A stretch of DNA of 64,000 nucleotides from Eukaryota sp. GEM-RC1 (taxonomy: Eukaryota), in contig JAUFOQ010000017.1 in assembly GCA_040285855.1 (NCBI GenBank), positions 1,240,001-1,304,000 of the forward strand, read 5' to 3'. The notes under the pieces were generated by a model that saw only the letters and a program-made list of their open reading frames with translations, had not been told where the DNA came from and searched no databases. The position numbers and the translations under genes were made by a program. Each line of letters begins with the position of its first letter. Within the stretch, counting starts at the first letter, position 1. This document shows positions 10,901-50,883 of the stretch, piece by piece.

Positions 10901-13029
10901 AGGAACAGACTTTTCAACAATTTCCGCTTCAGATTCTGAACTTTCAACATTATCATCATCAAATTGTTCATCTTGAATTTCAGGTACATAATTTTGAACA
11001 ATTTCCGCTTCAGATTCTGAACTTTCTACAATATCAACATCAAATTGTTCATCTTGAATTTCAGGTACAGAATTTTGAACAATTTCCGCTTCAGATTCTG
11101 AACTTTCTACAATATCAACATCAAATTGTTCATCTTGAATTTCAGGTACAGAATTTTGAACAATTTCCGCTTCAGATTCTGAACTTCCACCATGATGACG
11201 CTCAGCATCTGCTTCAGAGTCTTTACCATAATCACCATTGTCAAAGTGCTCATCAACAAAATCACCACGAACAGTATCCGAATCAAACTTACCAGAGCAT
11301 TCCTGTAATCCATTGTCAAACTTTTCGATACTAACTCGGAAAAGGTCTGACCCTCATCAACGTCATCAATAACGTCATCATCGACTATGTGATTGATCTT
11401 AGAATTATCATGACTGTGTTCAATATCCACAAACGTTGAAACAGTTTCGACAACATCTGCATTAGAAGGTAGGGATTCGCAATCAATCACATTTGATAGT
11501 GGCACGTCATCTTTGGACAAAAACTGACTGGAGCTTGGTAGAGGATTAGACGAAAATATTTCTGTAATTTTTTTGAATTTTTTCATTGCTAGTAGATCAA
11601 AATTGGGTGCTAGAATTAAATTTTCTAATGATTTATGATCAACAATTACTTGTTGAAATTGATGATCGAAAACCATTTCAAATACTGCTCCAATAGAGAC
11701 AAATGAATTTGAAAAATCAACAAATTGTAAATAATCTGCAGACGTTAAAAAATTCGACATTGTACTACATAGCTGGTCATCATCAGATGTCACTAATTTT
11801 TTAAAATTACAAGCGGATAAACTGACTAGACAAGAGTTTTGAATATTCCCTAAAACATTTAAAAATAGATCTGAATCAATTAAAATCTTATCAACAATTA
11901 ATTCCTCAATTAAACTGAAAACAATCAACAATCCATCAAAATTTGATTGCGAAAAGAAACACTGACTAAGATTCAACTTTTTAACTCCAATATCAGCAAT
12001 AACTGTGGCTAATTCATCAAATCCACCAGTAGAGATCATAGTCGAAGACAAATCTAAAACGGAAAGTGATCGTAACTCGGTCAAAATCAAAACGACAGAA
12101 TCAGCATTCAGATCATTTCCACTAAGATCAAGCTCAGATACATTGCTCTTGGACAAGGCCTTTCCTAGTAAAGAGCAATGAGTCATTGAAAGTCCAGTGC
12201 CACGTAGCACGAGACGTGATAGATTACACGACAAAACAATCAATTTTGATAGATTCAGCACACACATGTCATCCAACTGATTACATCCCAAATCTAAATT
12301 CTGTAGCACAGAGTTGCGATCCAATGAAGACACCAAAGCATCAAGAGATGAAGGTAAAAGGTTTGTACGGGAAAGGTTCAAGTGTGATAGACGTAGTTGA
12401 CAGCGTGGTTTGAAGAAGGTAGTAAGCCCTGGTTCAAGGTTAGGGTTGTTAGAGAAGTCAATGTGGGTGAGAGAGGAGTTAGAGGAAAGGACACGTGATA
12501 GGGAATGCAGGAGAGCGGGATGGAGGTTGGTTGAGGAGAGAGATAAGTCTGTGAGGTTTCGAAGAGAACAGATGAGATCAGAGAAAGCCATGATAGAAGG
12601 TTTGGAGGGGAAAACAGGACCATGAAGTGAAAGGTGTGAGAGGGAATGTAGTTGGGAGCAAGAGTGGTGAAGGGATCTGAAGAGAAAAGTAAAAGGGCAG
12701 TGATTAGGGTAGTCTGTACTAACTGCAGAGACAAATCCAGAGATTGACAGTGATGAGAGATTGCATCTAACCAAAAGATGCACTAGGCATGATGTGACGA
12801 GAGTAGTAGATAAGGGAAACAAAGAAGATAAAAGGGATTTACGGAAAAATGAAACAGAACCAACATGAAAGCGTCTAGTTGAAACTGTATTCAGAAGAGA
12901 CGCTAGTTCTTCTTCTGTGGATATTTGATCAAGACAGATCTGCAAATTCGATATGGCAGAATCGTTAGGAAAAGCGGAGAGAAGAGCATCACTTTCAACC
13001 TCAGTTGGAGGTAGAGTGAGCCAATGCAT
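7930..13029 (-). CDS. Large RNI-like leucine-rich repeat protein with central acidic 27-aa tandem repeats (frameshifted)
   Basis: LRRs (LTDLSLSSTNL, LTHIDFSNN, LQNLDLGCNQL, VSELDLSGNDL) in 11107-13089. Continues via a frame change near 11320 into the EIQDEQFD repeats (9089-10765 ORF) and via further shifts into the 8448-9053 and 8210-8530 ORFs. The single-gene model is inferred. Confidence 0.7.
9265..11190. repeat. 81-bp tandem repeat array, about 24 copies (coding: EIQDEQFDADNVESSESEVEIVENSVP)
   Basis: Unit GTTCATCTTGAATTTCAGG... recurs every 81 nt (9265, 9346, ...). Confidence 0.95.
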
Positions 13030-17431: not shown

Positions 17432-17466
17432 TGAAATAACCTAGACCCGTTCTATCATCCTATCGA

Positions 17467-20063
17467 ATGTCTCTTCTTGAATTCGCGACCCACTTTCACC
17501 TGTACTTTAAGGGGAAACCGCTGCGTATTGATAACGTGGAATCAGTTGCGGAGGAGATCCAGAAATATCCTCCTGATCCAGAGGTGGATACCTCTTATAT
17601 TCTATCTTATTTCCTTTTCTCTTTGCGATATATTGTACATGACGACTCGCTCTCAGCAAATTTTCCCTTGCTTCATGCTGTCTTGAGATTCTATCAAAAT
17701 AGCCCTGATTACCCTCCTTATCTGATTATGCATGCCACAGAAAATCTCATTCAAAGGTATGCCATACACATAGACATTTACGAAGAGTCAGACCCAGCTA
17801 TAGGCGCAACTCGGTTAAAGATAGTTTTTGACAACAAAAAGTGTAAAAAAGGATGGCGATTTTGGGGTGACCTATTCGAGTTTCTTGCAGGTCAAGTAAA
17901 GCCTCCTTTCATCTACGAAAAGACCAAGAAAGGGGACAAAGTGTCATTTGTATTCCCTAAAACTACACCGTGGTTTCACTATGAACCTTCTACAGGAATT
18001 CCACTGTTTTCATCACTTCCCGATGATTATAACAATTGCTCTGATTATGTGAGGGAAAATCATGGATCTGCACATCTTTTGCTTGTGGTCTTTGATGTTG
18101 TGCGTATGTTCAGTTCTAAACAAGTTATTGCTGATAGCTACAATGATATCTACAATCTCATTGATGACTTGGATAGAACACTGCATTCTGGCTTCTTCTC
18201 TTTACACGATGTTCTGAAACGCATTTCTGGTCTTTTTACTGATAGTTTCAGGGATGTTTCATGTGTTGTGGACCGTTCTAGAGTTCCATTGCCCCATTTT
18301 GATGGACGTCATTATGAGTGGATTTGCTGTTTGTCAAACACTGTTGATACTGCTTCAAACACACTAGATAAACTACTCGGATTCTTTGACCTCTTCAATA
18401 GTCTTCTGACACCACTCAAGGAAAAAGAAAATCACACAAACTATAATTTACTGACGGCACTGGACTTTCGTTATGAACTTGTTGATGGTCGTATCAAAAT
18501 CAGTTGGTGGTCACTTTACCTGAATCGATCATCTGTCAATCTCATTTCTCATGATCTTCTTGAGTTTAGTTATCCTCTTTCAGCCTCTTACCAATCTGTC
18601 ACTCCTGAGTTTCAGAATAGTGAAGAAACTCCGTGCTTTCTTAATAGGAACGATAAGACATCAGAAGGGTTTTGTCAGTTCTTGGGGGATCAATATGAAC
18701 GAGATTTACCTGATGTACCTTACCGCTTCCTTGATGAACAAGTTGATAGGAGTGATTGGGAAATCCCACCTCCTTTAAGAAATCTATGGAAGATTGTGCC
18801 TCAAGTTGGTTTCACTAATAACAGTGATGGGAGATTATCAGATTCTAGGTCAAGATTCAATGGCAGTGGTTGGCTTTATCCTGTACATTACAACAATAAG
18901 ATACGGTGGGTTTTGGTGACAAATAATCATGTAGTTTATCCTTGCAAGGAGTTGTATATTTTGTGTCTTTTCAAAAACAATGATGTTACCAATACTCAAA
19001 CTTTGCGTTTCCACTCTTTTGTTTGTTCGTCACCAGCTGTCGGTGAGAAATCTGTTATACCTCAAATTGATGTTGCTGTTGGTATTTTTGAGCAAGATTT
19101 CTCCGAGAACTTTTTTTATGATGAGGATGAAGAGACTCAGTATTCCGAGTTATTTAAACACACCCGCTACAAATTTGAATTGTCTCAAGATCCTATTGAA
19201 TTTACCACTGCTTTTGAAGACCGCCGACCAGTGTATTTAATTAGCCATCCTGGGTCTACCAGTGCAGGAGCTGTTGTATCTAAAAGTATAATCGAAGATC
19301 ATGATTATCATACGTTTACAACAGAATCATGTAGTCTTCCTGGGTCTTCGGGGGCTTATTGGTCTCTATCACGGAAGATGATGACGTTTTCGTTATTGGG
19401 TTTGTTTATGGTTCATTTCAGATAACAGGAAAACACTTCACAGTTGGTATTAAGTTTTGGCGTTTTCGGAGTATGTTTGAATGTCCTATCCAAACCTATG
19501 TTTTACGTCGTCAGATTTTTGAGAATCCATTTATCCGAACAGCCGTTCAAAACTATGCTTTGAATAATAATTACCATGCTCTGGAGTTTCTCCGTTATGA
19601 GCCAACAACAACAGTTTTGCTCTATTCTGCTCTACACCCAACTTTCCTGTACAATATATTGAACAACCTGGTCAGATCGTTTTCTCCAGCATTTTATCAA
19701 ATTTTGTTCGACAAACTAGATCCTTTTTGGAAACGGTTGTTTTTTCATGCAATGACTCTTACTCATCATTTCTTTGGACGAATTGACCTCAATGTCGTTG
19801 ATTTCTACAGACATTGTGCATGTTTGCTTATGTTTCTTTATCAGAAATTATCTGTGTTTTTTACTGACTCGAATCAATTTTCCAACGCGGTAACTTCTGA
19901 TTCCCTAGATGTTACTTCTTTAGTCCGTGTGTTTATCTCTGTGGATGATGTGGGAATGGAAATGCGTTTAGGAGCTCAAATCAAAGACCCGGAAAGTGAT
20001 TCGCTTGTGTATTATGCTCACACAGATAGCTTTTCGCAATTAACAACTTCAAATGAAGACTAG
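17467..20063 (+). CDS. Protein with internal trypsin-like (S1/Trypsin_2) serine peptidase domain
   Basis: GSGWL..VLVTNNHVV (His), IDVAVGI (Asp), SLPGSSGA (Ser); frameshift near 19360 joins the 19359-20063 ORF (VFVIGFVYG follows the Ser motif as expected). Confidence 0.75.
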
Positions 20064-20372
20064 ATTCGCCATTATCTTTAAACTCTCCATTATTAAAAAT
20101 GTATATAAAATTATTTAAACATGTATTTTAGAGTCCGTTTAGGCAATTAAATTTCTACAGTCTACTGTTGCTTTAATGTATCCCTCGAATTGAAATCGAA
20201 TGACAAGTCTCTTCCAGCTCCTGTGAGACTCTATAGATTGCTGACTGTATTTGCTGCAATGCGTTACTGTCAAAATTCTACGAACGAAAGAATTAAAATA
20301 TTGATGCTGTGTCTAAAAAAAGTCGATTTAGATAACATATTGAACGACAACTTATGGGCCAATACAAGTATT

Positions 20373-21701
20373 TTATTCATCAGAAAAAGAAACTTCAGCT
20401 GCATCGACACTTTCAGCTACAAATAGCAAGTCATTTCTCTGTGAAGGATCAACATATCGTTTCAAATAAAACTCTTTCCAAACATAATCCATCACGTCAT
20501 CAACATCTGACTCCTTAACCATGGCAATACAATTCCCACCAAATCCTGCACCAGTCAACCTTCCTCCCAGTACAGACGGATGACCAAGCATCACTGATAA
20601 TAGTAAATCAATGTTAGGGGATGAACACTCGTAATTGTCTCGAAGGGAGTCTTGACTTTGATTCAATAGCTTTCCAAGAACTGTACAAATATTTAAATTG
20701 TCTCCTCCCAAAGAAGATAAATGATCAAATTCCATAACTCTTTGAAATTCTGTAACAACGTGCAATGCTCGTTTGAAAGGTTTGTAGTAGATATCAAAGG
20801 GATTGGTGGATGTAGCAAATGCATTTTTTAAAATTTTTGATTGAATGATGTCTGTTGAAATGTTTAACATTTCGGAAATTTCGAGCAAACTTAACGGTCG
20901 TTGAGGAATTGCACTTTGCAACACTTCTATCATGGCAGATGCTTCATAAACTTCCCCGGCATAAAAGACATCCCGTAGAGACAAAATTTCAAAAATATCA
21001 TCAAGATTCAAAAATTTGGCAACAAATACACACGCCATCCTCATTTCAACAACACATAGATTATATTTCAAATCCTTGGATTCCGCTTTATGACACTCTT
21101 CCAACGAATGTGCTACAATGAACTTAACACAAGAGGGAAGTAAATTTGAGTGACATCTCAAGGGAGAGAAAGATATGTAAGAGTAATGGGATCGCTTGGC
21201 ATTTAGAATGACTGCTTGGTCCATCCCACCACTTAGAGTGCCACAGAATTGTTCAGCTTTGCGTGTGAGTTCAGCAAGAACCATACGGTCGGTAATGGGT
21301 TGGGATAGGAAAAAGTAATTGAAGATTAACATGAAAGTAACTACAATGGCAGAGCTTGAACTTAAACCAGAGGCGATAGGGATGGTAGAGTGACAAGTGA
21401 CATTGAGACCTGAAGAAGTAAGAGGTGAAGATTGTAGATGGTGTATTCCTTTCAATGCACAAATGGCATATGAAGCAAGATTGGGTTTTGAACACGTTAT
21501 GGGGCTATTAGAGAGATTATTGGGATCATCAAGTGAGATATCAAAGGTCTGGTTGTTGATCGTTATGTGAATGGTGTTGGATTCTGTTTTCTTAACTTCG
21601 GCAGTGAAATACCTATTAATTGCAAAGGGGAGAACTTGGAAGTGAGAATAGTCCACATGTTCACCAATGATATTGACTCTAGAAGGTGTGCGAATAATCA
21701 T
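20373..21701 (-). CDS. GALK: Galactokinase / N-acetylgalactosamine kinase, copy 1
   Basis: PSRVNIIGEHVDY, PIASGLSSSSA (GHMP), GGMDQ, RALHVVTE, GGRLTGAGFGG. Confidence 0.93.
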   Translation of the reverse strand: MIIRTPSRVNIIGEHVDYSHFQVLPFAINRYFTAEVKKTESNTIHITINNQTFDISLDDPNNLSNSPITCSKPNLASYAICALKGIHHLQSSPLTSSGLNVTCHSTIPIASGLSSSSAIVVTFMLIFNYFFLSQPITDRMVLAELTRKAEQFCGTLSGGMDQAVILNAKRSHYSYISFSPLRCHSNLLPSCVKFIVAHSLEECHKAESKDLKYNLCVVEMRMACVFVAKFLNLDDIFEILSLRDVFYAGEVYEASAMIEVLQSAIPQRPLSLLEISEMLNISTDIIQSKILKNAFATSTNPFDIYYKPFKRALHVVTEFQRVMEFDHLSSLGGDNLNICTVLGKLLNQSQDSLRDNYECSSPNIDLLLSVMLGHPSVLGGRLTGAGFGGNCIAMVKESDVDDVMDYVWKEFYLKRYVDPSQRNDLLFVAESVDAAEVSFSDE

Positions 21702-21802
21702 AAAGAATAACTTTTCAGAAATGAAATGCATCGACTACTACAATGTAGTATGTTGAATCAGTTTCACTGCAGCAGAATATGCTAGAATCTGCGATGTGAG
21801 CC

Positions 21803-22735
21803 CAGGAGTGTGTATCGATAAAATCTTATTGTTCGATAACGATATATCTACTCTTATCGACCCGACAATTCTGAAAGATATAATTATCGACTGTCTCCAG
21901 CAACATTCCGATATATTGGGATAAATAAGGACAAATTGTTGGAGACAAAATAGACCATTTTTCTGGTTTCACTGAGTGATTTCACTGAAACATGTACACC
22001 GATTGTTTCATTTTTTCATTTTCTCTGGTCACATATCTATATTTATCTATATATGTGACATGGGTGATGTGATATGTGTGATTCACATGTATCACAAAAT
22101 GCATGAAAGTGTGATACCCAAGTATGTATTCAAGTAGGGTTTTAAGTTGATCTTACAAGTATAAAAGTTCATCTAACTTTAAAAGCTCAGTCGATCATTG
22201 GCATTTTTGTTGCGTTTTTCTCGTTAAAGACCAACGAAGTAGTACATTGTGTATTTGGGAGGTCAAAATTGAAACTTTCATATCGAAGTTAGTCTCACTG
22301 AGACCATTTTCTAGTGAGACTAATTGGAAACAATCGCTGTGTTGAAAAGTGTAGTAAAGACTGATAAATGATGTTGGAGAAATTGATTGCTGCAGCACAA
22401 TTACATTTGACCCATGATTTGTCCAGAAAAGACATTGAGGCTGTAGCAAGGTCGCCAACTTGTACTTTAGGCTAGCTAATTCTGCTCTAACCCCTCCAAA
22501 AGCTGAGCACAGAGATACGCGTGGTGCTTGGAAATGCGTTAAGCATAATAAACGTAGTTTTATTAATACACATATATTTCATATTTCTATTGTACGTCAT
22601 TCAATTATCGAAGATATTTTTACCGATTTATGGTTGAATAGTCCATAATTAGATAAGATATACTCCCTGACATTATATTTATCGAAGTTGCCTAACAAAA
22701 CGATAAATAAAAGATATCGAAAATACACACTCCTG
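21803..22735. mobile_element. hAT-like TIR element, about 933 bp, present only in duplication copy 1
   Basis: TIR CAGGAGTGTGTAT; TSD ATGTGAGC (21794-21801, 22736-22743); single empty site at 27326-27333 in copy 2. Confidence 0.92.
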
Positions 22736-23841
22736 ATGTGAGCTATCAATCAGTGAATCAAATGTAATTTACAAAGAGAAGAATATTAAATCGTCAATTC
22801 TATTACAAACACTACAATTGCCCTTGATATTAGGTGAATTTGGTTCCTCTAGTGACATTATTGGAAACAGAGTTTATGAATGAGACGGACTGTAATATGA
22901 ATCAAAATATTAGCTACGAAGCTCTAGACACTCTCATACAACATAATGACAAATATTCAAATGAGGGTAATGGAATCAAGTCTTGGCCCCAGATGTTCAA
23001 GTACTTCAAATTTAGTCTGCACAATTGCCTAATGGAATTCAAATTGTAGGAATTTGGTTAAACAAAACTTGAAATACAAAGAAAAGTTTTCATTGCTTCT
23101 GGTAGTGGCTGATCCAGATCATACAACTTCCTTATCATGTATATAACATGTGTTTGACACGTCACAGGGATATGCCTTGATATGATGAAGTCACGTGTCG
23201 GTAAACGTGTAAGGATGTAGTCAACACCATGTACAATTGTAAAAGCAGGGGATGTTGGTGCAAGAATTGGATGGGAACACAAGTATCCATCATAGATAGA
23301 AGCACGCTGCTATTAGATCAATGAGAAAGACTTGACGCTACTCAGGAACAGCGAGAAGTAGTTGCATCTGATCCAAAATGAATTAAAGATGAAGAAGAAG
23401 AAAGAAGAATTCTCTGGAAAAAAGAAGATTGAGAGAGGAAGGGAAAGCAATGCTACGAGCCTGTTTGACAACAAAGGGTATGATTGTAAGGGCAAATGAA
23501 GAGATCTAGCATATGAAACAATCTCTCTCCTTAATAGGTACAATAGTACGAGCAATGACAGAACGCAATTGAAGGTCATGATACGATGTGGATGTTAGAG
23601 CTAAAACACGGTTAGGGCAAATGATGTGATCACTGGCGGTATATAAGAGTTGATTAGGACACCAATATATGTTCCATCTCATACGAGGAGGATGTTAGAG
23701 CTAGAACACACTTGCAAGAAAAAAAACCAATGGAAGCGTGTTAGCACTGATATGACATTAAGGCCTGTCCGCTATACAAGCCGCCCTCAAGGCATTATAG
23801 AGAAGATAGAGATAGAGAAGATAAAGGCTTAAGACAACCCT

Positions 23842-25643
23842 AAAGTAGTATTTTATTAAAGCCATGAACATGAGAAAGACTCATCAGCTATTTAGAGGAT
23901 TGTTGGAAAAAGTCTATCACAAGCACTAGTGGTAGCAGTAAAAAGTGAAAAGAAAACTGTTGGCAAAATCAAAATCCCCTATGACACGGAATCCTGCTGA
24001 GAGGAAAGTGATGAACAATCAATTACAATGTCGACAGTGACTTATTTCCGTCTCATGACTCCATCAGGTTTGTTGATGTCTCACACAATAAGAGGTTCCA
24101 ATCCTCCTCGGCTGGATGTTTCGTATCCAGTTGAGACTGAAAGTTCCGTCCTTTCAGTTATGTGTTCAGGAGGTTCCAATCCTCCTAACACTATAAGAGG
24201 TTCCAATCCTCCTCGGCTGGATGTTTCATATCCAGTTGAGACTGAAAGTTCCGTCCTTTCAGTTATGTGTTCAGGAGGTTCCAATCCTCCTAACACTATA
24301 AGAGGTTCCAATCCTCCTCGGCTGGATGTTTCATATCCAGTTGAGACTGAAAGTTCCGTCCTTTCAGTTATGAATTTGGGTGGGGACTACGGCCCTAACC
24401 CAGGATTAACAACTCAGGGCAGTTGCAGAGAAGAGGCTTATAGCTTGATATCTGCAACTCCTGATGAGTTAATACCGCAGTGGTCCGTGTCTTGTTGTAA
24501 AACTCGACAAAAGCAATTCACTTTTGATTTGGAGAATAAACACAATTTCAAATTTTGTTTGATTCATTTGTTTGTGAAAGATTTAACCAACGATGGTGAT
24601 ATCGAGTCGAATCCCGGACCGGTATCATTTAACTCACATGAATTTGAAGACATAACATTGTTGTCTGAATGTGAATGGTTAGAGCTATTCCATCTTCTTT
24701 TTCCATAAATAATATCAGTTTGGATTACCCACTCGCCAATCAAACTATTGGATTTTTATCATGTATATAACTTTCTAACGTTAGAGAAAGATGTTATTTA
24801 TCATGATATAAGAGAAAAAAATGCAGATTGTCGGCTTGTTCTTATTCTCATGAACAATGGTATTATTGACGGATTTGCTGGAACTCACTGGGGACTATGT
24901 GTTATAGATTTCATGACTGAAACGTTATACTTCATGGATTCTATTTCTAACAGTGATTTGTTGTCCTCAAAAATTGATTTTATACAATCGTTTTGCCCAA
25001 ACAACTTTTACCATTGTCACATTAATTCTGTGAAACAGGACAATGGTTATGATTGTGGCATATTTGTTCTGTATTTTATTGAAGTTTTATTTAAGACATT
25101 TAACGTTGAAACAATTGATCACATTGATCACTGTATAATGATGACAGATTTTCAAAATGAAATTATGCATCATCAATTTGATCCCTCTCAATTTCGTATC
25201 AGATTGAACTTAAAACTGGACAGCCACGTTAATCCAGGAAAAAGGCTTGCCACTGTCAGCAATATGCCTCCAAGAAAACAAAAACGATCAAACAATAATA
25301 ATGAAAACGAACCCCAACTGGTGAAAAAACCAATTGGGCGTAAATGTTCAAAGTGTAGAAACACTGGTCATGATATAAGAAAATGCCCATTGGCAGTAAA
25401 AACAAGTGAAAAAACAAACGAAAAAGAATCACCAGTTAAGTCTGAAAAAAGAAAAGATCCTTTCGAAAACGTAACCTTAATGTTAGATCACAAACACTCG
25501 ATTAAGTGCATTTTTGTGAAAATGATCGAAGCTTCAGCAGCTATTAAAGAAACTAAAAAAGAAAAAAGAGAAAAAAATAATCACATCAATTATCACTCAA
25601 ACAGTTCAAGTCCAGGACCAAGTAATTACAATTGTAGAATCAA
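23842..25643 (+). mobile_element. 3'-truncated copy of the Fanzor element (repeats, 2A, Ulp1-like protease, zinc knuckle)
   Basis: Near-identical to 28432-30125; ends at the duplication junction. Confidence 0.85.
24085..24372 (+). repeat. 105-bp (35-aa) coding tandem repeat, about 2.8 copies (about 1.8 copies in copy 2 at 28675-28857)
   Basis: AGAGGTTCCAATCCTCCTCGG at 24091, 24196, 24301. Confidence 0.9.
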
Positions 25644-25907
25644 AATTATTTAAACATGTATTTTAGAGTCCGTTTAGGCACTTAAATTTCTACAGTCTAC
25701 TGTTGCTTTAATGTATCCCTCGAATTGAAATCGAATGACAAGTCTCTTCCAGCTCCTGTGAGACTCTATAGATTGCTGACTGTATTTGCTGCAATGCGTT
25801 ACTGTCAAAATTCTACGAACGAAAGAATTAAAATATTGATGCTGTGTCTAAAAAAAGTCGATTTAGATAACATATTGAACGACAACTTATGGGCCAATAC
25901 AAGTATT

Positions 25908-27236
25908 TTATTCATCAGAAAAAGAAACTTCAGCTGCATCGACACTTTCAGCTACAAATAGCAAGTCATTTCTCTGTGAAGGATCAACATATCGTTTCAA
26001 ATAAAACTCTTTCCAAACATAATCCATCACGTCATCAACATCTGACTCCTTAACCATGGCAATACAATTCCCACCAAATCCTGCACCAGTCAACCTTCCT
26101 CCCAGTACAGACGGATGACCAAGCATCACTGATAATAGTAAATCAATGTTAGGGGATGAACACTCGTAATTGTCTCGAAGGGAGTCTTGACTTTGATTCA
26201 ATAGCTTTCCAAGAACTGTACAAATATTTAAATTGTCTCCTCCCAAAGAAGATAAATGATCAAATTCCATAACTCTTTGAAATTCTGTAACAACGTGCAA
26301 TGCTCGTTTGAAAGGTTTGTAGTAGATATCAAAGGGATTGGTGGATGTAGCAAATGCATTTTTTAAAATTTTTGATTGAATGATGTCTGTTGAAATGTTT
26401 AACATTTCGGAAATTTCGAGCAAACTTAACGGTCGTTGAGGAATTGCACTTTGCAACACTTCTATCATGGCAGATGCTTCATAAACTTCCCCGGCATAAA
26501 AGACATCCCGTAGAGACAAAATTTCAAAAATATCATCAAGATTCAAAAATTTGGCAACAAATACACACGCCATCCTCATTTCAACAACACGTAGATTATA
26601 TTTCAAATCCTTGGATTCCGCTTTATGACACTCTTCCAACGAATGTGCTACAATGAACTTAACACAAGAGGGAAGTAAATTTGAGTGACATCTCAAGGGA
26701 GAGAAAGATATGTAAGAGTAATGGGATCGCTTGGCATTTAGAATGACTGCTTGGTCCATCCCACCACTTAGAGTGCCACAGAATTGTTCAGCTTTGCGTG
26801 TGAGTTCAGCAAGAACCATACGGTCGGTAATGGGTTGGGATAGGAAAAAGTAATTGAAGATTAACATGAAAGAAACTACAATGGCAGAGCTTGAACTTAA
26901 ACCAGAGGCGATAGGGATGGTAGAGTGACAAGTGACATTGAGACCTGAAGAAGTAAGAGGTGAAGATTGTAGATGGTGTATTCCTTTCAATGCACAAATG
27001 GCATATGAAGCAAGATTGGGTTTTGAACACGTTATGGGGCTATTAGAGAGATTATTGGGATCATCAAGTGAGATATCAAAGGTCTGGTTGTTGATCGTTA
27101 TGTGAATGGTGTTGGATTCTGTTTTCTTAACTTCGGCAGTGAAATACCTATTAATTGCAAAGGGGAGAACTTGGAAGTGAGAATAGTCTACGTGTTCGCC
27201 AATGATATTGACTCTTGAAGGTGTGCGAATAATCAT
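25908..27236 (-). CDS. GALK: Galactokinase / N-acetylgalactosamine kinase, copy 2
   Basis: Same GHMP motifs as copy 1; retains YNLRVVE. Confidence 0.93.
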   Translation of the reverse strand: MIIRTPSRVNIIGEHVDYSHFQVLPFAINRYFTAEVKKTESNTIHITINNQTFDISLDDPNNLSNSPITCSKPNLASYAICALKGIHHLQSSPLTSSGLNVTCHSTIPIASGLSSSSAIVVSFMLIFNYFFLSQPITDRMVLAELTRKAEQFCGTLSGGMDQAVILNAKRSHYSYISFSPLRCHSNLLPSCVKFIVAHSLEECHKAESKDLKYNLRVVEMRMACVFVAKFLNLDDIFEILSLRDVFYAGEVYEASAMIEVLQSAIPQRPLSLLEISEMLNISTDIIQSKILKNAFATSTNPFDIYYKPFKRALHVVTEFQRVMEFDHLSSLGGDNLNICTVLGKLLNQSQDSLRDNYECSSPNIDLLLSVMLGHPSVLGGRLTGAGFGGNCIAMVKESDVDDVMDYVWKEFYLKRYVDPSQRNDLLFVAESVDAAEVSFSDE

Positions 27237-28617
27237 AAAAAACAGAAAACAAACTAAAGAAAAACTTTTCAGAAATGAAATGCGTTGAATCAGTTTCACT
27301 GTAGTAGAAGATACTAGAATCTGCGATGTGAGCTATCAACAGTGAATCAAATGTAATTTAGAACGAGAAGAATATTAAATCGTGAATTCAATTACAAAGA
27401 CAACAATAGCCCTTGATATTAGACGAATTTGGTTCGCTAATCACGTTATTTGAAACAGAGTTTATGAATGAGACGGACTGTAATAAGTATCAAAATAATA
27501 GCTACGAAGCTCTCGACACTGAACATATTGGAGCCACAGTTCTCATACAACATACTGACAAATATTCAAATAAGGGTAATGGAATCAAGTCCTGGCCCCA
27601 GATGTTCAAGTACTTCAAATTTAGTCTGCACAATTGCCTAATGGAATTCAAATTGTAGGAATTTGGCTAAACAAAACTTGAAATACAAAGAAAAGTTTTC
27701 ATTGCTTCTAGTAGTGGCTGATCCAGATCATACAACTTCCTTATCATGTATATAACATGTGTTTGACACGTCACAGGGATATGCCTTGATAAGATGAAGT
27801 CACTTGATGGTAAACGTGTAAGGATGTAGTCAACACCGTGTACAGTTGTAAAAGTAGGGGATGTTGGTGCAAGAATTGGATGGGAACACAAGTATCCATC
27901 ATAGATAGAAGCACGCTGCTATTAGATCAATGAGAACGACTTGACGCTACTCAGGAACAGCGAGAAGTAGTTGCATCTGACCCAAAATGAATTAAATGAA
28001 TTCTCTGGAAAAAGAAGATTGAGAGAGGAAGGGAAAGCAATGCTACGAGCCTGTTTGACAACAAAGGGTAGGATTGTAAGGGCAAATGAAGAGATCTAGC
28101 ATATGAAACAATCTCTCTCCTTAATAGGTACAATAGTACGAGCAATGACAGAACGCAATTGAAGGTCATGATACGATGTGGATGTTAGAGCTAAAACACG
28201 GTTAGGGCAAATGATGTGATCACTGGCGGTATATAAGAGTTGATTAGGACACCAATATATGTTCCATCTCATACGAGGAGGATGTTAGAGCTAGAACACA
28301 CTTGCAAGAAAAAAAACCAATGGAAGCGTGTTAGCACTGATATGACAATAAGGCCTGTCCGCTATACAAGCCGCCCTCAAGGCATTATAGAGAAGATAGA
28401 GATAGAGAAGATAAAGGCTTAAGACAACCCTAAAGTAGTATTTTATTAAAGCCATGAACATGAGAAAGACTCATCAGCTATTTAGAGGATTGTTGGAAAA
28501 AGTCTATCACAAGCACTAGTGGTAGCAGTAAAAAGTGAAAAGAAAACTGTTGGCAAAATCAAAATCCCCTATGACACGGAATCCTGCTGAGAGGAAAGTG
28601 ATGAACAATCAATTACA

Positions 28618-29193
28618 ATGTCGACAGTGACTTATTTCCGTCTCATGACTCCATCAGGTTTGTTGATGTCTCACACAATAAGAGGTTCCAATCCTCCTCG
28701 GCTGGATGTTTCATATCCAGTTGAGACTGAAAGTTCCGTCCTTTCAGTTATGTGTTCAGGAGGTTCCAATCCTCCTAACACTATAAGAGGTTCCAATCCT
28801 CCTCGGCTGGATGTTTCATATCCAGTTGAGACTGAAAGTTCCGTCCTTTCAGTTATGAATTTGGGTGGGGACTACGGCCCTAACCCAGGATTAACAACTC
28901 AGGGCAGTTGCAGAGAAGAGGCTTATAGCTTGATATCTGCAACTCCTGATGAGTTAATACCGCAGTGGTCCGTGTCTTGTTGTAAAACTCGACAAAAGCA
29001 ATTCACTTTTGATTTGGAGAATACACACAATTTCAAATTTTGTTTGATTCATTTGTTTGTGAAAGATTTAACCAACGATGGTGATATCGAGTCGAATCCC
29101 GGACCGGTATCATTTAACTCACATGAATTTGAAGACATAACATTGTTGTCTGAATGTGAATGGTTAGAGCTATTCCATCTTCTTTTTCCATAA
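28618..29193 (+). CDS. N-terminal segment with 35-aa repeats and 2A (StopGo) peptide
   Basis: FVKDLTNDGDIESNPGP matches the D(V/I)ExNPG-P consensus exactly (29083-29106). Confidence 0.8.
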   Translation: MSTVTYFRLMTPSGLLMSHTIRGSNPPRLDVSYPVETESSVLSVMCSGGSNPPNTIRGSNPPRLDVSYPVETESSVLSVMNLGGDYGPNPGLTTQGSCREEAYSLISATPDELIPQWSVSCCKTRQKQFTFDLENTHNFKFCLIHLFVKDLTNDGDIESNPGPVSFNSHEFEDITLLSECEWLELFHLLFP

Positions 29194-29232
29194 ATAATAT
29201 CAGTTTGGATTACCCACTCACCAATCAAACTA

Positions 29233-29720
29233 TTGGATTTTTATCATGTATATAACTTTCTAACGTTAGAGAAAGATGTTATTTATCATGATATAAGAGA
29301 AAAAAATGCAGATTGTCGGCTTGTTCTTATTCTCATGAACAATGGTATTATAGACGGATTTGCTGGAACTCACTGGGGACTATGTGTTATAGATTTCATG
29401 ACTGAAACGTTATACTTCATGGATTCTATTTCTAACAGTGATTTGTTGTCCTCAAAAATTGATTTTATACAATCGTTTTGCCCAAACAACTTTTACCATT
29501 GTCACATTAATTCTGTGAAACAGGACAATGGTTATGATTGTGGCATATTTGTTCTGTATTTTATTGAAGTTTTATTTAAGACATTTAACGTTGAAACAAT
29601 TGATCACATTGATCACTGTATAATGATGACAGATTTTCAAAATGAAATTATGCATCATCAATTTGATCCCTCTCAATTTCGTATCAGATTGAACTTAAAA
29701 CTGGACAGCCACGTTAATCC
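29233..29720 (+). CDS. Ulp1/SENP (C48) cysteine protease domain, SENP8/DEN1-like
   Basis: GTHWGLCVID (His 29371), YFMDS (Asp 29422), KQDNGYDCGIFVL (Gln and Cys 29539). Confidence 0.88.
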
Positions 29721-29747
29721 AGGAAAAGGCTTGCCACTGTCAGCAAT

Positions 29748-32700
29748 ATGCCTCCAAGAAAACAAAAACGATCAAACAATAATAATGAAAACGAACCCCA
29801 ACTGGTGAAAAAACCAATTGGGCGTAAATGTTCAAAGTGTAGAAACACTGGTCATGATATAAGAAAATGCCCATTGGCAGTAAAAACAAGTGAAAAAACA
29901 AACGAAAAAGAATCACCAGTTAAGTCTAAAAAAAGAAAAGATCCTTTCGAAAACGTAACCTTAATGTTAGATCACAAACACTCGATTAAGTGCATTTTTG
30001 TGAAAATGATCGAAGCTTCAGCAGCTATTAAAGAAACTAAAAAAGAAAAAGAGAAAAAAATAATCACATCAATTATCACTCAAACAGTTCAAGTCCAGGA
30101 CCAAGTAATTACAATTGTAGAATCAATTATATTCACTACACAACAAAGTTGCGATTCAGTTCTGTCACCTAATTCTGAGCATGCTAGAGTGAATGTTCAA
30201 GCGTTTAATCAAGAGGAATCTATAATTAGTGCGTTTAATGATTATTTAGTTTTAACTGACTGTGGTCTGATAATTGGTTATGATGCAAGTTCTACGATGG
30301 ATGAATTTAATTTAAAATCAGAGAATTGTTCAATTATTCAGTGTCCTCTTTTTTACAAATATTTTTTAAAACAATTCAAAAATTCAAAAATTCAGTTAAT
30401 AGATTTGGGCCGTGTTATTAGAAATTATTACAGACCTAGAACTGGAAAATCTTTGAATTGGGTTACTGTTGTAAAGAACATTTTAAAAAATGAAAGTTAT
30501 TCAGTTCCCACACCAGTTTCTACAGATTTCACCATTGAACAAAACTTGAACTGTTTACGTGAACATTTTAACGATATTGTTGAATTACAAAGCCTTTTTG
30601 TGTATTTCCTTCAAGTCGAAACACAAGAATTGCTGAAATGCCCGGGTGAAAAAACGGTTATAGTAACCCTAAAATCTGTTTGGACTGATAACAACATATT
30701 GGTAGATGAAATTTCTATAAATCATCACCGAATTAAACAACGTGCATTGCTGCTACTTCAAGGCTTTTGCATGAACTCTTTTGATAATCAGGAATTGAAT
30801 CCAGTAGAATGGACCAAAGAAAGTGTCCACCAATTGCTCTGGACTATTGGATTCTTGTCTCCATTAGCTCATCAAAGATTTAAAAATGAGGAAAATATTG
30901 ATGGAAGTGAAATTCTCAAATGGGTAACTGAGATTGTTCAAAGTACTCCAGGCAAAAAGCACAATGCTTTAAAAATTCAACTCGGATGCTTCTATATCCA
31001 ACATCTTCTCCCCGTGGATATGGAAATTCCCAATGTCAAGTACTCTGATATGTCTCGTACATTAAGTTATACAGCTACTGAGATTGTTACAATGTATCAA
31101 AATAATATTTCATCCCATTTTATTGAATATTTGGAAAAAACATGGGAACTCTTCTTTAATTTAAATGGACAACTAAAAATTATTAAAAACAATGCACTTA
31201 AAAAAGTCGAAAAAGACCAGTTGCAAAAGTTGTCCAATAATATCCTTAAAGAAATTTTAGAAGGCAGAGGATCCGATATTGATTTTACCGAGATCTGGCA
31301 AAATCCATCAGATGAACATCAAAATTTCATTACATTTGTCAAAAACTTTAAGCCAGACTCTAAAGGACTCAAATACCAATTAAAGGTAAAGCCTTTGGAG
31401 CTCTTACCAGAGGCCTTCGTTCTCAACAAATTGATTGAGAATAACCCTTCCTGTAATGAGATTCCACCAAAGATGTACCGCATGTTTCCACAATCCACCA
31501 GCTTAATTCCTGATCACCTTCGATTGGACACGTAAGCTATGATTAAATTATTCAAACCTCAAGTTCAAGGTTATAATCTAACACATCTGACCAAAAACAT
31601 TAATTTATTTAAAAATGAAATTTGGAGCCAGTATTTGAATCTTGATCACAAATACTTGAACACTTTCAAAAGATGTATTCATTTGGTCACCAGATAACTA
31701 CCAATGGTGAATCAATCAGTCTCATGATGACCAGAAATGATCTACTGTTCAAACCATACTCTGCCAAGTCTCCGGAGGAAAAAGAGGAGTATGTGGAAGA
31801 TTTACATCCTGAAAAATTAGAGGATTTTAAAAAATAAAAAAAGTCGTGGTAGGGGACCCTAACCAATGGGATATTCTGTACTTGGTTGGAAGAAAAACCC
31901 AGGAAGAAATTGATAATTCTGGGCATTGTGCTCCCCACTTGACCCAAAAATCTCAAAAACATATGAAAAGAAGAGATTGAAAGAAATTAAAAGGCATAAA
32001 GCCCAGTTCCAAAAAGAGAATGATGAGGTCAAAAAATCAAGTAAAAAGAGACCATTTCAAAAGAAAAATCAATTCAAAAAAATGAGATATACTCAAGGAA
32101 CTCGAAGGCACGAAGGAAAACAAAAAAAAATACAATGTATTTCAGAACCAAGCCTTCAATAACTATTCTTTTACCGAAATTTCAGGAAGACAACTGACAG
32201 CTGAACAGATTCAGACAGAATTTTCAGAATTTACTTCCAAAACAACAAAGTTTTCAAAATTTAAAGCTTACGTCCAACAATTCTACAAGTATGCAAATAG
32301 AATGGAGTCTCTGTACCATCAATCTAAATGGCGCAAATGGAGCTATTGGAAATCAGTATACAAGGAAAAAAGTGAACGTAAAATGCTCCATCGATTCCGT
32401 CAAGTTTACGGAGATCCAACCAACACGTGGTTGGCCATAGGTGATTGGAGTCAGTCAAGGCATAGGAAATACAAGCCTCCAACCATGGGGAAAGGATCAA
32501 GAAAGTTGTTCAAAAAGCTGGCTATCAGGTTCTTCTGGTTAACGAATTCAGGACATCTCTTCAGTGCCACGGATGTTCTGAGAACAACGATGACGAAGGG
32601 GAAACGGAAACCTTCCTTAAAGTCAAGGATCCAAACTTCAGGAAGAAGAAGCGAAGAGTTGAAAAGAAGGCAAATCGCCTATCAGCGCTGATGAATTGGT

Positions 32701-33017
32701 CTAGTTGGACGGACGAAGATGACAAGCTGTTGTGGCAGGAAGAGGCAGATGAAGTCAAGTGTTGGGGTTTAGTGCGTTGTAAAAAATGTCATAAACTCTG
32801 GAATCGAGACTTCAATAGCTGTTTGAATATTCTGAAGATTGTTGAGTGTACTCTCGCTGGTGAGGATCGACCAATGTGTTTCTCCGACAAGTTAGCTGAA
32901 GAAAGACGGAAGAGAGCAGCAAAGAGTACAAACAACAATGAAGATTCAATAACAGAAACAGTGGCGGACCCGCAAGGGATAGAACCGCCACAGCCCATGT
33001 GCACTGAATGTAGATGA
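29748..33017 (+). CDS. Zinc knuckle + degenerate exonuclease-like domain + Fanzor1 (TnpB-family RuvC) nuclease; interrupted in this assembly
   Basis: CSKCRNTGHDIRKC knuckle; Fanzor1-type motifs LSYTATEIVTMYQNNISSHF, FPQ..IPDHLRLDT, ITTNGESISL; RuvC-I VVVGDP (31855); MRYTQ; LAIGDWS..PPTMGKG; RuvC-II VLLVNEFRTSLQCHGC (32544); zinc ribbon CKKC; RuvC-III WNRDFNSCLNI (32808). One TAA at 31533 plus several frameshifts, mostly in A runs. Confidence 0.88.
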
Positions 33018-33100
33018 ATGTCCATATATCGTTACATCTTAGGAGAAATTCACAGAAAATGAATTAAGAAAACTACTCTTGACAACTCTCTTTTGAAATG
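32955..33100 (+). ncRNA. Candidate Fanzor omegaRNA (scaffold plus start of guide)
   Basis: GTGGCGG/CCGCCAC stem enclosing a CCC-GCAA-GGG tetraloop hairpin; AATTCA/TGAATT hairpin; located at the ORF 3' end and element right end. Confidence 0.55.
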
Positions 33101-33779
33101 AACAATTGCTGAGTCACCGTCTTGTAAACTAGCTATTGGTGATCTTTGCGTGTAAAGACAGAAGCATTTTCGAAAAGACTATTGTTTGATATTGTTGATC
33201 AATTTTCCAACACTGTTTTGAGCTACATTTTCTACCTACAAAGAGAGTTTGCTGTCGATATTTTTGATGTATCTTAAAGATTATAACTTGTACCCTGAAA
33301 CACTAATTAAAGAAACATATTAAATAATATCCAAAGTAAGTAACAAAAACAGTCATCAGAAATTCCAATGTTTGATTTTACATTGTACTTTTGAAATGAG
33401 TTGTTTGAAATATTCAGAATCGGTTTGAATGGATACTACAATGGTAATTCCTTGTTTTTAATTCCTTGTTTTTTTTAATTTTCTAAATCACGTCAATTAA
33501 TCATCCAGAAACACTAATGATCCGAGCCAATCATTTATTCGCGTTGATTTGCCAACTGAGTAAACACATATTCTAGTCAAACGTTTGTATTAGAAACAAT
33601 TGAAAATTGCACAAAATCTACATTGTTTCCGTTTGACTAATTTAACAAATTTTGAAAGTGGTAAACATGGTCTTATAATCAAGACAGTTAAAAACAAAAT
33701 TAGTAACAAATGAAAAAACAATATGATAAGCAGAAATTTGAAAAATTGGTTCCATCATTACTGAAAATTAGTAGAACCA

Positions 33780-46410: not shown

Positions 46411-48897
46411 ATGCCCGAATCTGATGATTCAGAGAGTCGCGTTAGAGTCTTTATTCGACCTAGACCTCCAACGGTTGAAGAAGCCAAACTTGGCTCATGC
46501 ATCTCTCTTAATGGCAACTCCATTATTGTTCAAAAAGATCAAACTACTTCGAATCAGTTCCACTTTGACGCTGTATTCCCTCTTTCTGCATCTCAACAAG
46601 ACTTATATGACAAAGTAGGACGACCTGTAGTTTCTGATGTTCTCAATGGCATTAATGGTGCCATTCTAGTATATGGACAGGTATTTTTATCACTCTCCAC
46701 CTAACCAAAGACTGGTACTGGTAAAACCTATACCCTTGGAATTCTTGACAATCTCCGTACCACTAACTTAGAAGATGCTGGTATCATTCCCAAAGCTCTC
46801 TCAGAGTTATACTCAACCATTGAATCTAAGCGTAAAACCAAAGAAATCTCTAAATATTCCATCAAGCTATCTTTTCTCCAGCTCTATCTTGAAACAGTCC
46901 AAGATCTCCACCATCCTACAGACAACCTCAGCATCAGAGAGCACCCAGAACGTGGAATCTACGTGGCAAATCTTTCTGATCAAGAATGTCCCTCCTTATC
47001 TTCCGCAATAGACTTCATCAACAAGGGTCTTTCCAATCGAATCGTGGCTCCCACACTCCTCAATGTCACGTCAAGTCGAGCTCATACCGTCCTGACAGTC
47101 AACGTGAAGACTTTGGGAGTTTCTGAAGATAAGATTCCTGTTAAAAGATCTGCTAAGTTAGTGTTTACTGACTTGGCAGGAAGTGAGAGGGTTAAGAAGA
47201 GTTTGAGTAGAAGAGGGTTAGAGGAGAACTATCAAAAAAGATTGGCAGAGTCACGTGCGATTAACACATCACTTGCCGCTTTGGGCAATGTGATCTCTAT
47301 TTTGAGCTGTACTAATCAATCAACAATCAGTCACATACCTTATCGTGATTCTAAACTTACTAGAATTCTACAACCGGTTTTCAGTGGTCATTGTCGAGTT
47401 TCTGTTGTTTGCACTGTCTGTGAGTCTAAAGCTGCAGGTTCTGAATCTCTTTCAACTCTGCTATTTGCTGAAAGATGCGCAGGAGTCCGTATAGTACCTG
47501 TTCTGAACGAGTCTGTGTCTTCTAATGATCCCGTCTACGTCATCAAACAACTGACAGAGGAAGTGAGGAGATTGAAGAAGGAATTGGCGGAGGTGAAGAG
47601 TAGAAAGGAGGGTCAATCTAGTGGAGTTGAGTATGTGAAGAGTGAAAGTGGTGACGTTGTTGATTGCAATCAGGATTTGATGGGGGTTGTTGGTGAGGTG
47701 TATTCAGCGTTGGTTTCACAGGTTTCTGACTTGAGTGTGCGTTCAAACATTAGACGTCAGCTTCAGGAACGATCTCTGTATCAGGAAGTCGAAGCAGAAG
47801 TCAGACGAAGTCAAGAGAATTCTGAGCTATTTAGACGTGATGAGATGAAGTATGCAGTGCCATCAAAACAGATTGAGTCTACGTCAGTGATACAACAGAA
47901 TTATCCTATTCCAGAACCAAATGTTTCTCAATCACCGACTGTCAATCAGTTGACTACGGAAGACTTGATTAATGGACGAGCACAAGTTTCCCGAGAAAAT
48001 TTAAATATTGTGTCTAATACTCTAACGAATCTAGTTTCCACTCTAGCAGTGCATACGACAGCTGCTGAGGATTCTTGTCTGGAATTTAGGGATGAAATTG
48101 TTCATTTATTAAAATTCAAACAAAATTTAGAAGCGGAACAAGAAAACTGGCGTCAAGTTTTAAAAAGTTTGTTATTAAAAAATGGCGAACAACGATCTCA
48201 GATTCAACGTCAATGTTTAATTATTGAAAAGGCATTCACTGAGAATAACTACTTACGTGAATCTCTGTCTCAGTCAGAATCAATAATCGTTCAATCACGT
48301 CGCCAATCAAAAATGCCGAATTTCTCTGTTATCAATGCCGAGTTGCTGCCATCAGTAACACGTGGTATAAGAAAAGCTCAGACTTTATGGAGAATCAAAA
48401 GGTATTGTAGGAAGATGAAAAAGGAAAGTTCTGTTTCCAAAGCACGTTCACGAGCTCAATCAAATGCCTCATTACAAAATTCAAATATTTCAAAAATTAC
48501 AAATGTTTCAACTGTTTTCGCAAAGCCATCCCCGCTTTCTTCAGAAGGTCCTCTCCACAAAGCCACTCAAGAAATCCTGAACGCCTTCCAGTACACTCTA
48601 GATTATCTACTGCCCAATCAACGTGATTGTAAGGGATCAGATGCTGATGACGTGACGTCACAGACACCTTCCCTAGTCAGTTCAAGGTCTTCTCGTCTGC
48701 GGAGTTTTTCCTCATGGACAGACACGTGCACTGTGCCGTCTAGGTCATCGACACCTTCCCACTCAATGACGTTTCCATCTCAATCAAGTAGGTTTTTGAC
48801 CCCAGCTCTAAATGTTCCTCCGAAAAGAGCGGCTGAATTACTCAGAGCTGATTCTGATTCCAGTGAGAGTGATGGGTTTGAGCAGATTGCATTGTAA
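46411..48897 (+). CDS. Kinesin-like motor protein, one intron (46681-46710)
   Basis: VRVFIRPRP, YGQ|TGTGKT after splicing a 30-nt GT..CTAAC..AG intron, SSRAH, DLAGSE, HIPYRDSKLTRIL. Confidence 0.92.
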
Positions 48898-49778: not shown

Positions 49779-50883
49779 ATGTCACAAGCTTACAAAGGAA
49801 GTCATGGCAAAATTGGTGTTTTTGGAGGCTCTTATGAATACTGTGGTGCTTCCTTCTTTGCTGCCATGTCTGCCTTAAAGTATGGTGCTGATTTGTCATC
49901 CATAATATGTTCTCCAGACGCTGCAATCCCAATCAAGTCATATTCTCCCGATCTCATCGTTTTCCCTTCCTTATATGACATACCTGCGTGTATGGAACTT
50001 ATTCCCAGATTTGATAGCATTGTGATCGGTCCTGGAGCTGGCAGAAGCGAATCAGCCGTTGCATCAATGAAACAGATCATTCCCAAGGCAATTGAGTCTG
50101 CTAAAGTAGTTGTACTTGATGGAGATGCTCTCTGGTTGTTATCCCAAGACAAGTCTATTCTACCTTCTGATTTTGGATCTTGTACAGTAGTTTTAACCCC
50201 AAACTTTATGGAATTAACCCGTCTTTGTCATACGTATCTTGATCGTACCCCACGAGATGTATCACGTAATTTTTCAGGTAAGCTGGGAAAAGACTAGGTA
50301 CATTTGTTGTTCAAAAGGGACCAGTAGATTTCATTGGAACACCCTCTGGAGTTTCCTTTTTGGTAAACCTTCCACAAGATATGAACAACCAAAAAGACCT
50401 GGAGGACTAGGTGATATACTTGCGGGTTGTATTGCTGTCTATACGCTGCACGGTTTGCGATCTAATGATCGTGTTGAGTTGGCTTTAGACGGAGCTTGTC
50501 AGGTTAACAGATGTGTTGCTTACAAAACTTTTAAAATGTGGAGTTTATGTTATTCAATGACTGCTTCGGATGTGCTTAAGAACATTAAACAAAAGAGTCG
50601 ACTCAAGCTACCGCTGTCAGTTCTGAGAAAGCATCAGTATTACTTGTTTTTTTGGATTAGTTTGGCTTTCGCGTACTTGTTGGTATTTATTGCATACAAA
50701 CATGGTGATCGGTTTGCGGGCGGAATGATTCTTTGTTTTCTGGCCGTGTTGTTACTTTTCTCTATCTCTGCTCTTATCGATGATAGGGGACCTTTCAGGG
50801 ATGAACTTCAACAAACAAATTACGACGGTGTTACAACCATTCAATCAGGACAGTCTAAGGACAAGGTCTCACACTCTGATTAA
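49779..50883 (+). CDS. NAXD: ATP-dependent (S)-NAD(P)H-hydrate dehydratase (YjeF-C/CARKD)
   Basis: KGSHGKIGVFGGSYEYCGA, IKSYSPDLIV, VIGPGAG, VLDGDAL, LTPNFME, RPGGLGDILAG; frameshifts around 50290-50365. Confidence 0.92.

Follow-up and report, generated by a model that had tools for sequence, protein, structure and literature searches.

A Fanzor1 locus of Eukaryota sp. GEM-RC1 with a 2A motif and an NEDP1-like protease ahead of the nuclease, a probably new architecture

We analyzed a stretch of 64,000 nucleotides from Eukaryota sp. GEM-RC1 (contig JAUFOQ010000017.1, positions 1,240,001 to 1,304,000; hereafter the window, whose own numbering is used throughout) that contains an element encoding an RNA-guided nuclease of the Fanzor1 type. 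The element spans ~1,466 codons on the plus strand, from an ATG at 28618 to a TGA at 33015-33017, and is composed of a leader, a 2A motif, a C48 protease, a CCHC zinc knuckle, an exonuclease-like stretch and the Fanzor1, in this order. An earlier reading of the letters alone (the sequence-only reading) had described these collinear modules up to the stop ending at 33017, and our analysis bears this out. The Fanzor1 is real and belongs to a repeated family; its architecture is probably new, as judged from a single, broken locus. On balance, we favor the view that an intact element encodes a single long protein of protease, knuckle, likely inactive exonuclease and Fanzor1, with the leader predicted to be lost at the 2A motif.

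As judged from its sequence, the C-terminal part (30648-33017, plus strand) is a complete Fanzor1 with WED/REC, RuvC and TNB zinc finger portions, broken by an in-frame TAA at 31533 and by five homopolymer sites. Read across these breaks, it presents the RuvC residues D31855, E32544 and D32808 and CxxC pairs at 32565 and 32778, all recognized before. The Fanzor1 motif D-X(125,275)-[TS]-[TS]-X-X-C4 finger-X(5,50)-RD is formed by D31855, RTS at 32553, CHGC/CKKC and WNRD, and the Gly and Glu conserved near the zinc finger of Fanzor1 proteins (PMC3627910, cited from extracts, as are all papers below) are found in IGDW at 32437 and VNEFRTS at 32538. A basic insertion of ~60 amino acids follows RuvC-I. 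The sequence-only reading had staked its assignment beforehand on a match of this region to TnpB/Fanzor profiles. The TNB domain profile matches with an E value of 5.8e-8, the best PDB matches of three separate stretches are GtFz1, SpuFz1 or PpFz1 (E 2.8e-4, 0.02, 1.5e-4), and the assignment stands. With all best PDB matches being Fz1 proteins and an N-lobe that aligns with relatives of 600-700 amino acids, the protein appears nearer to Fanzor1, including its extended REC, than to Fanzor2/TnpB. Stand-alone relatives begin at the EKTVIVTLK of the window (30648), and a search of 1.84 billion representatives returned 64 matches, 62 to the Fanzor N-lobe and two to the knuckle only.

Close to the 3' end of the coding region, a 7-bp stem with an inner GCAA hairpin (32961-32991, plus strand) is a candidate for the first stem-loop of an omegaRNA; seven pairs are likewise given for the initial stem in the omegaRNAs of three Fz1 proteins (PMC11423790). 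A descriptor of this stem, written after both sets had been seen, fired in 28 of 73 viral loci, at the same position as in the window; of 490 tiles of the window, 3 gave a match. The RNA-like hairpins proposed earlier for this end are of modest stability (fold z -1.9 and -0.5), and a covariance model of viral Fanzor ends, described below, did not recover the stem.

Four sister Fanzor proteins with the NCBI label Eukaryota sp. GEM-RC1 (KAL0246105.1, KAL0228837.1, KAL0241711.1 and KAL0232615.1) lie on contigs of four different lengths and are 92-94% identical in alignment A4; their coverage is limited to the Fanzor part, and haplotypes may be among them. Such dispersed copies are those expected of a DNA transposon and suggest a repeated mobile family. 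Another Fanzor1 family with this label (P0007, P0008, P0082-P0084; hereafter the second family) is ~35% identical and also split at A-runs, and P0004 is a relative that carries another label.

Upstream of the Fanzor1, the knuckle, the exonuclease-like domain and the Fanzor N-lobe share one open reading frame (ORF) of 605 codons. This frame contains no in-frame ATG between 30297 and 30771, a stretch that includes the ~115 codons leading up to the Fanzor, and the Fanzor as assembled has no start of its own. At the protease-knuckle junction, the full copy suffers a frame break in an A-run (29724-29727, plus strand). A second, truncated copy of leader, 2A, protease and knuckle (24028-25643, plus strand) carries one A more at this point, and here protease and knuckle run unbroken through a 314-codon ORF (24709-25653). 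Conversely, the upstream copy has an extra A of its own further on, where the full copy stays open. The junction of knuckle through exonuclease to Fanzor is thus in frame in the full copy, and that of protease to knuckle in one of the two copies.

The truncated copy is part of a tandem duplication, overlooked by the sequence-only reading, that comprises a galactokinase gene and the 5' part of the element (units 20092-25643 and 25625-30126). Its junction lies inside the element at ~30126, and the window therefore holds the element's 5' third twice. The two units are near-identical in galactokinase and from 28000 on; in between, 724 bases of 27250-28000 could be aligned and show 38 mismatches, and the first unit has ~930 additional bases.

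The protease (29104-29709, plus strand) belongs to family C48 of clan CE. It matches Peptidase_C48 well above the cut-off (E 4.2e-10; 40.3 bits against 20.7) and retains the complete His-Asp-Cys triad with the oxyanion Gln (H29371, D29422, Q29521, C29539). Ulp1 is first and SENP8 second among its PDB sequence matches, and the five best fold matches of a predicted model (predicted local distance difference test, pLDDT, 57) are NEDP1, the top one with an E value of 1.2e-6, a TM of ~0.5 and ~18% identity. Poxvirus core proteases also appear among the fold matches. The Ulp1-type protease seen earlier is thereby substantiated. The modeled fold is nearest to NEDP1 and points to a NEDD8/SUMO-type enzyme, its substrate not being readable from sequence or fold. 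An uninterrupted domain is found in neither window copy: the TAA at 29191-29193 lies inside it, downstream of a WL motif shared with nine of nine viral Ulp1 domains.

The 2A/StopGo motif FVKDLTNDGDIESNPGP (29056-29106, plus strand) reads FVKDLTNDG-DIESNPG|P, with the skip predicted before the Pro at 29104. It combines the core (D/G/C/N)(V/I)ExNPGP with an upstream motif, lies in frame with coding sequence on both sides, and its core octapeptide has a chance expectation of 1.4e-4 over the six frames of the window; the earlier identification is thus confirmed. It fits upstream motif 4, WV(R/K)DLTx[acidic]G with D(V/I)ESNPGP, of which a tested example skipped at almost 100% (PMC12846837). Judging from its sequence, the motif belongs to a class with near-full skipping elsewhere, and skipping is predicted here. 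The label of a virus-like polyprotein given by the sequence-only reading is slightly overstated, as the element has a single good 2A site, close to its N-terminus, an arrangement found in 2A-bearing retrotransposons.

The leader peptide (28618-29103, plus strand) is an open frame of 162 codons if counted from ATG 28618, or of 83 if counted from ATG 28855, and its release is predicted to occur at the 2A motif; it has no Pfam match, and its best PHROGs match has an E value of 0.28. Within it we found a tandem 105-nt hairpin repeat (28670-28892, plus strand) that the sequence-only reading had missed, with two units here and three in the upstream copy (24080-24410). Its hairpins are T-loop-like (GAGG-UUCCAAU-CCUC) except for the final one, which is capped by cUACGg; ATG 28855 comes after the last complete set of hairpins. 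Its RNA fold has z scores of -6.5 on the plus and -3.6 on the minus strand, its DNA fold of -5.3 and -4.6. A tRNA search was negative, leading us to reject a tRNA; nor did the repeat match Rfam, viral sequences or purpose-written descriptors of hepatitis delta virus-like or hammerhead ribozymes. The strong fold would constrain the leader and may explain the presence of the 2A: the repeat may be kept for its nucleic-acid structure, and the 2A may rid the enzyme of the peptide that it encodes. L1Tc likewise has a structured 5' end ahead of its 2A.

Two modules lie between protease and Fanzor. A basic start, MPPRKQKR, which resembles a nuclear localization signal (NLS) and may serve as one, together with the CCHC knuckle occupies 29748-29870 (knuckle, 29829-29870; plus strand). 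The CCHC pattern claimed before is present, its zf-CCHC profile match falling below the cut-off (E 0.011). The following stretch (30039-30620, plus strand) resembles a remnant of a PolB/DnaQ-type 3'-5' exonuclease. Its scores are weak but consistent: PF03104 matches with E 0.013 and 15.4 bits (cut-off 23), a profile of nine viral PolB domains gives 15.1 bits where the best of 500 shuffles reaches 11.7, the hhalign probability is <6%, the Atlas value is 0.84-0.86 (<0.9, a lead only) and a single-sequence model has a pLDDT of 33. No D-x-E of motif ExoI is found upstream of DQVITI. Because ExoI is absent, the earlier label of a dead exonuclease appears reasonable, if not firm, on these weak profile scores.

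The assembled reading frame is far from intact. It changes at six sites (29724, 31668, 31825-31842, 31933, 32122 and 32512), every one in a homopolymer run, and two in-frame TAAs, at 29191 in the protease and 31533 in the Fanzor, are confirmed. The sequence-only reading had likened the breaks in A-runs to those in housekeeping genes. In keeping with this, the motor domain of a host kinesin is split across two frames (profile positions 1-240 and 239-327) at a 4-A run at 52443, a break of the same kind as those at 29724 and 31668. Sister proteins, 92-96% identical, read through two of the slips: P0002 and P0066 are open across 31668 and across the first of the slips that precede RuvC-I. At the lysine run before RuvC-I of the second Fanzor family, P0082 and P0007 read through and P0083 and P0084 slip. 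Taken together, the read-through in sisters, the mixed states of the second family and the split kinesin make assembly errors the likely cause of most frameshifts. The stops are a different matter. The TAA at 29191 is probably real damage, and one or both TAAs are likely to be real damage in the window copy; at 31533, P0002 and P0066 have Leu. An intron around 29191 was considered, since the host has short GT-AG introns (e.g., 46681-46710), and rejected: by-hand inspection showed that candidate GT-AG pairs either run into a stop through a change of frame or delete much of the domain. Apparent homopolymer frameshifts also occur in the genes of an NAD(P)H-hydrate dehydratase (50290-50400), the kinesin (52443) and an IBR-domain protein (~990), with profile continuity confirming the kinesin only.

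Several observations weigh against a single long, functional protein. The protease stop is common to both window copies (24706 in the upstream copy). P0002 and P0066 have the slip of the window at the 7-A run ahead of the catalytic RuvC-I Asp in common with it and terminate there, and the three later slips have no second copy for comparison. ATG 29748, which opens MPPRKQKR, is a plausible independent start, and an ATG in another frame immediately precedes the Fanzor start, a small caveat. At a position of the REC loop with Arg in relatives, the window and P0001/P0065 have STPG; GtFz1 loses activity in R85A (PMC11423790), an equivalence that we do not assume. A covariance model from nine viral Fanzor ends did not detect the 32961 stem. 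No sister protein reaches protease, knuckle or exonuclease. No transposase was detected (no Pfam match in the three forward frames of 27409-28470), and one copy offered no convincing terminal inverted repeat (TIR) or target-site duplication (TSD) by which to define the ends; without a transposase or clear ends, the element would have to move by homing alone or with the help of a partner in trans. Finally, no fused relative was found in protein searches of limited reach, covering lengths of 1060-3025 amino acids (query region 300-605 of the long ORF), 172-550 amino acids (protease-knuckle ORF) and 1512-4315 amino acids (Fanzor alignment; above the predicted size). A DNA pattern of 2A plus protease gave 5 viral and at least 119 metagenome matches, none in frame among the matches listed and attributable to chance, and a fused protease or 2A core was present in 0 of 80 viral Fanzor loci. 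The missing front-half sisters say little in this balance, since none of nine window ORF variants that we looked up is present in the protein collection.

The alternative that survives best, an unlikely one in our judgment, is that of two products: leader, 2A and protease would end at the TGA at 29806-29808, and knuckle, exonuclease and Fanzor would start at ATG 29748, with the protease acting in trans and untethered. The full copy reads so as assembled, MPPRKQKR resembles a natural start with an NLS, runs in this assembly show extra as well as missing bases, and a degenerate NPG immediately follows the protease. What speaks for the fused state is the first window copy, in frame at this junction, together with the other breaks in short A-runs (4-A or 5-A) followed by G: those at 31668, 32512 and kinesin 52443 are all one base short and none has gained a base, which favors fusion at 29724. 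The claim of the sequence-only reading that the protease is physically fused to the nuclease is supported by the two junctions seen in frame. Its extension to the family goes beyond the Fanzor-only sisters, and lasting attachment goes beyond a locus in which ATG 29748 could start a protease-free product.

Rather unlikely as well is a local chimera or relic, in which a deletion or insertion brought an ordinary Fanzor1 together with accessory domains from a different transposon, leaving the front modules as dead passengers. The TAA common to both protease copies and the lack of sister proteins for the front half are in line with this, and Fanzor1 elements are known in which the 5' part has been deleted or exchanged (PMC3627910). 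An inverted match between 30102-30128 and 33428-33454 (23/27), found after the fact, exceeds 60 of 60 shuffles and is also in line with this. It overlaps the breakpoint of the duplication and interrupts the DQVITI strand of the exonuclease, and no TSD accompanies it. Long open frames over the joints, short linkers, the intact catalytic set and the intact 2A argue against passengers, and the nine absent window ORF variants take weight from the missing sister calls.

We regard as very unlikely a true polyprotein, cut in cis by its clan CE protease in the manner of adenovirus or poxvirus core proteases to release a free Fanzor. Poxvirus core proteases are indeed among the fold matches, behind NEDP1, and the sole two Gly-Gly sites (SGG and LGG) lie in the leader; none occurs in the ~1,270 residues downstream, which gives no indication of cis-processing at ubiquitin-like sites, a weak argument. 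Decoding of the breaks, in which ribosomes would insert a residue at TAA or undergo programmed frameshifting in the A-run ahead of RuvC-I, is highly improbable: the RuvC-I slip is common to the window, P0002 and P0066, yet the second family shows both states at the same run, and TAA reassignment is rejected as galactokinase and other host genes terminate in TAA and the sisters have Leu at 31533.

Returning to the single long protein, the following course can be envisaged. Ribosomes would read the leader constrained by its hairpin repeat, and skipping at the 2A would free an enzyme part of ~1,300 amino acids starting with Pro, which basic motifs could take to the nucleus. There it would load a right-end omegaRNA starting at the 32961 stem and cut empty alleles, and the element would be restored there by repair, in line with proposals for OMEGA systems; such homing, with repair of the cut empty allele from the filled one, is reviewed in PMC13565253. 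Knuckle and pseudo-exonuclease might bind nucleic acid. The protease might act on host factors in the vicinity of the element or of the cut, taking off NEDD8 or SUMO and so countering silencing or degradation, as has been suggested for Ulp1 domains in other transposons. The sequence-only reading had proposed removal of ubiquitin-like marks at the target, which by analogy we can put no higher than a conjecture. In its boldest form, an active Fanzor1 family would be a natural RNA-guided eraser: freed from its structured-RNA leader by skipping, it would carry a NEDD8/SUMO protease to a guide-chosen site, strip marks from chromatin or repair factors and steer repair toward copying of the element. 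We consider this doubtful. Any Fanzor that has acquired such a protease would link guided DNA cleavage to the stripping of ubiquitin-like tags, provide a natural precedent for engineered effector fusions to TnpB and Cas proteins, and imply that the Fanzor1 N-terminus tolerates several hundred extra residues. It also bears on the role of Fanzors in eukaryotes, whose break repair and silencing are under the control of chromatin and of ubiquitin-like signals; a protease-bearing Fanzor would make this question testable by single catalytic mutants.

We looked for the arrangement beyond the window. Window pieces found no matching locus in viral or metagenome contigs. Among 86 Fanzor ORFs in the 80 viral loci, which are giant-virus relatives of one subgroup rather than a protist survey, an N-terminal extension of >100 amino acids occurs in one, a 2A core in none and a fused protease in none. 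Ulp1 genes adjoin the viral Fanzors at two of the 80 loci (L018:8047-8982 and L040:5453-6406); we rejected them as fusion relatives, as they are separate ORFs and seven of nine near-complete giant-virus records carry Ulp1 anyway. A giant-virus Fanzor1 at L020:5275-7827 has a 205-amino-acid N-terminal extension with a weak match to RNA_helicase PF00910 (E 7e-4, below the cut-off). The extracts of PMC3627910, PMC10530073, PMC10432273 and PMC10711439 describe no protease or 2A fusion of a Fanzor, nor do those of PMC6338049. Peptidase_C48, Ulp1 and three 2A cores were absent from the files searched among the supplements of the first four papers, whose unlabelled sequence tables could hide a protease fusion. 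Elsewhere in the window, 9256-11196 holds a long 81-bp tandem array with an acidic repeat on the minus strand that adjoins a leucine-rich ORF, and 17440-19425 an ORF of 661 codons that weakly matches a trypsin-like domain (E 0.043).

The layout of a protease-fused or 2A-led Fanzor1 was thus not found in the Fanzor surveys searched, whereas Ulp1 capture and an N-terminal 2A are already known in other elements. With SpuFz1, GtFz1 and PpFz1 (PMC3627910, PMC10432273, PMC11423790) the window element shares the D-X(125-275)-TS-C4-RD motif, the GDW Gly, the Glu before the finger, its best PDB matches and repeated copies; its 7-bp 3' stem is a candidate for a further common feature. It differs in ~680 extra front codons (leader, 2A, protease, knuckle and exonuclease remnant) and in that no transposase or TIR was found; described Fanzor1s reach ~800 amino acids by internal insertions (PMC10711439). 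The non-LTR (long terminal repeat) elements L1Tc, Ingi, CR1 and L2 (PMC3708506) similarly have one N-terminal 2A and drop a short leader, of 40-80 amino acids there and 83 or 162 here, but the window element is without reverse transcriptase or APE domain and its 2A is of the viral DLTxDG class. The deNEDDylase NEDP1/SENP8 shares with the window protease the H-D-Q-C set, a long loop before HW and the top fold match, at ~18% identity and with a TAA inside the window domain. Lastly, the Ulp1-carrying Kaonashi/VANDAL Mutator-like elements (PMC13317346) also are mobile elements that keep a C48 protease, for which an escape from host control has been proposed; there its partner is the anti-silencing gene VANC, whereas in the window the partner is an RNA-guided nuclease and the protease fold is nearest to NEDP1.

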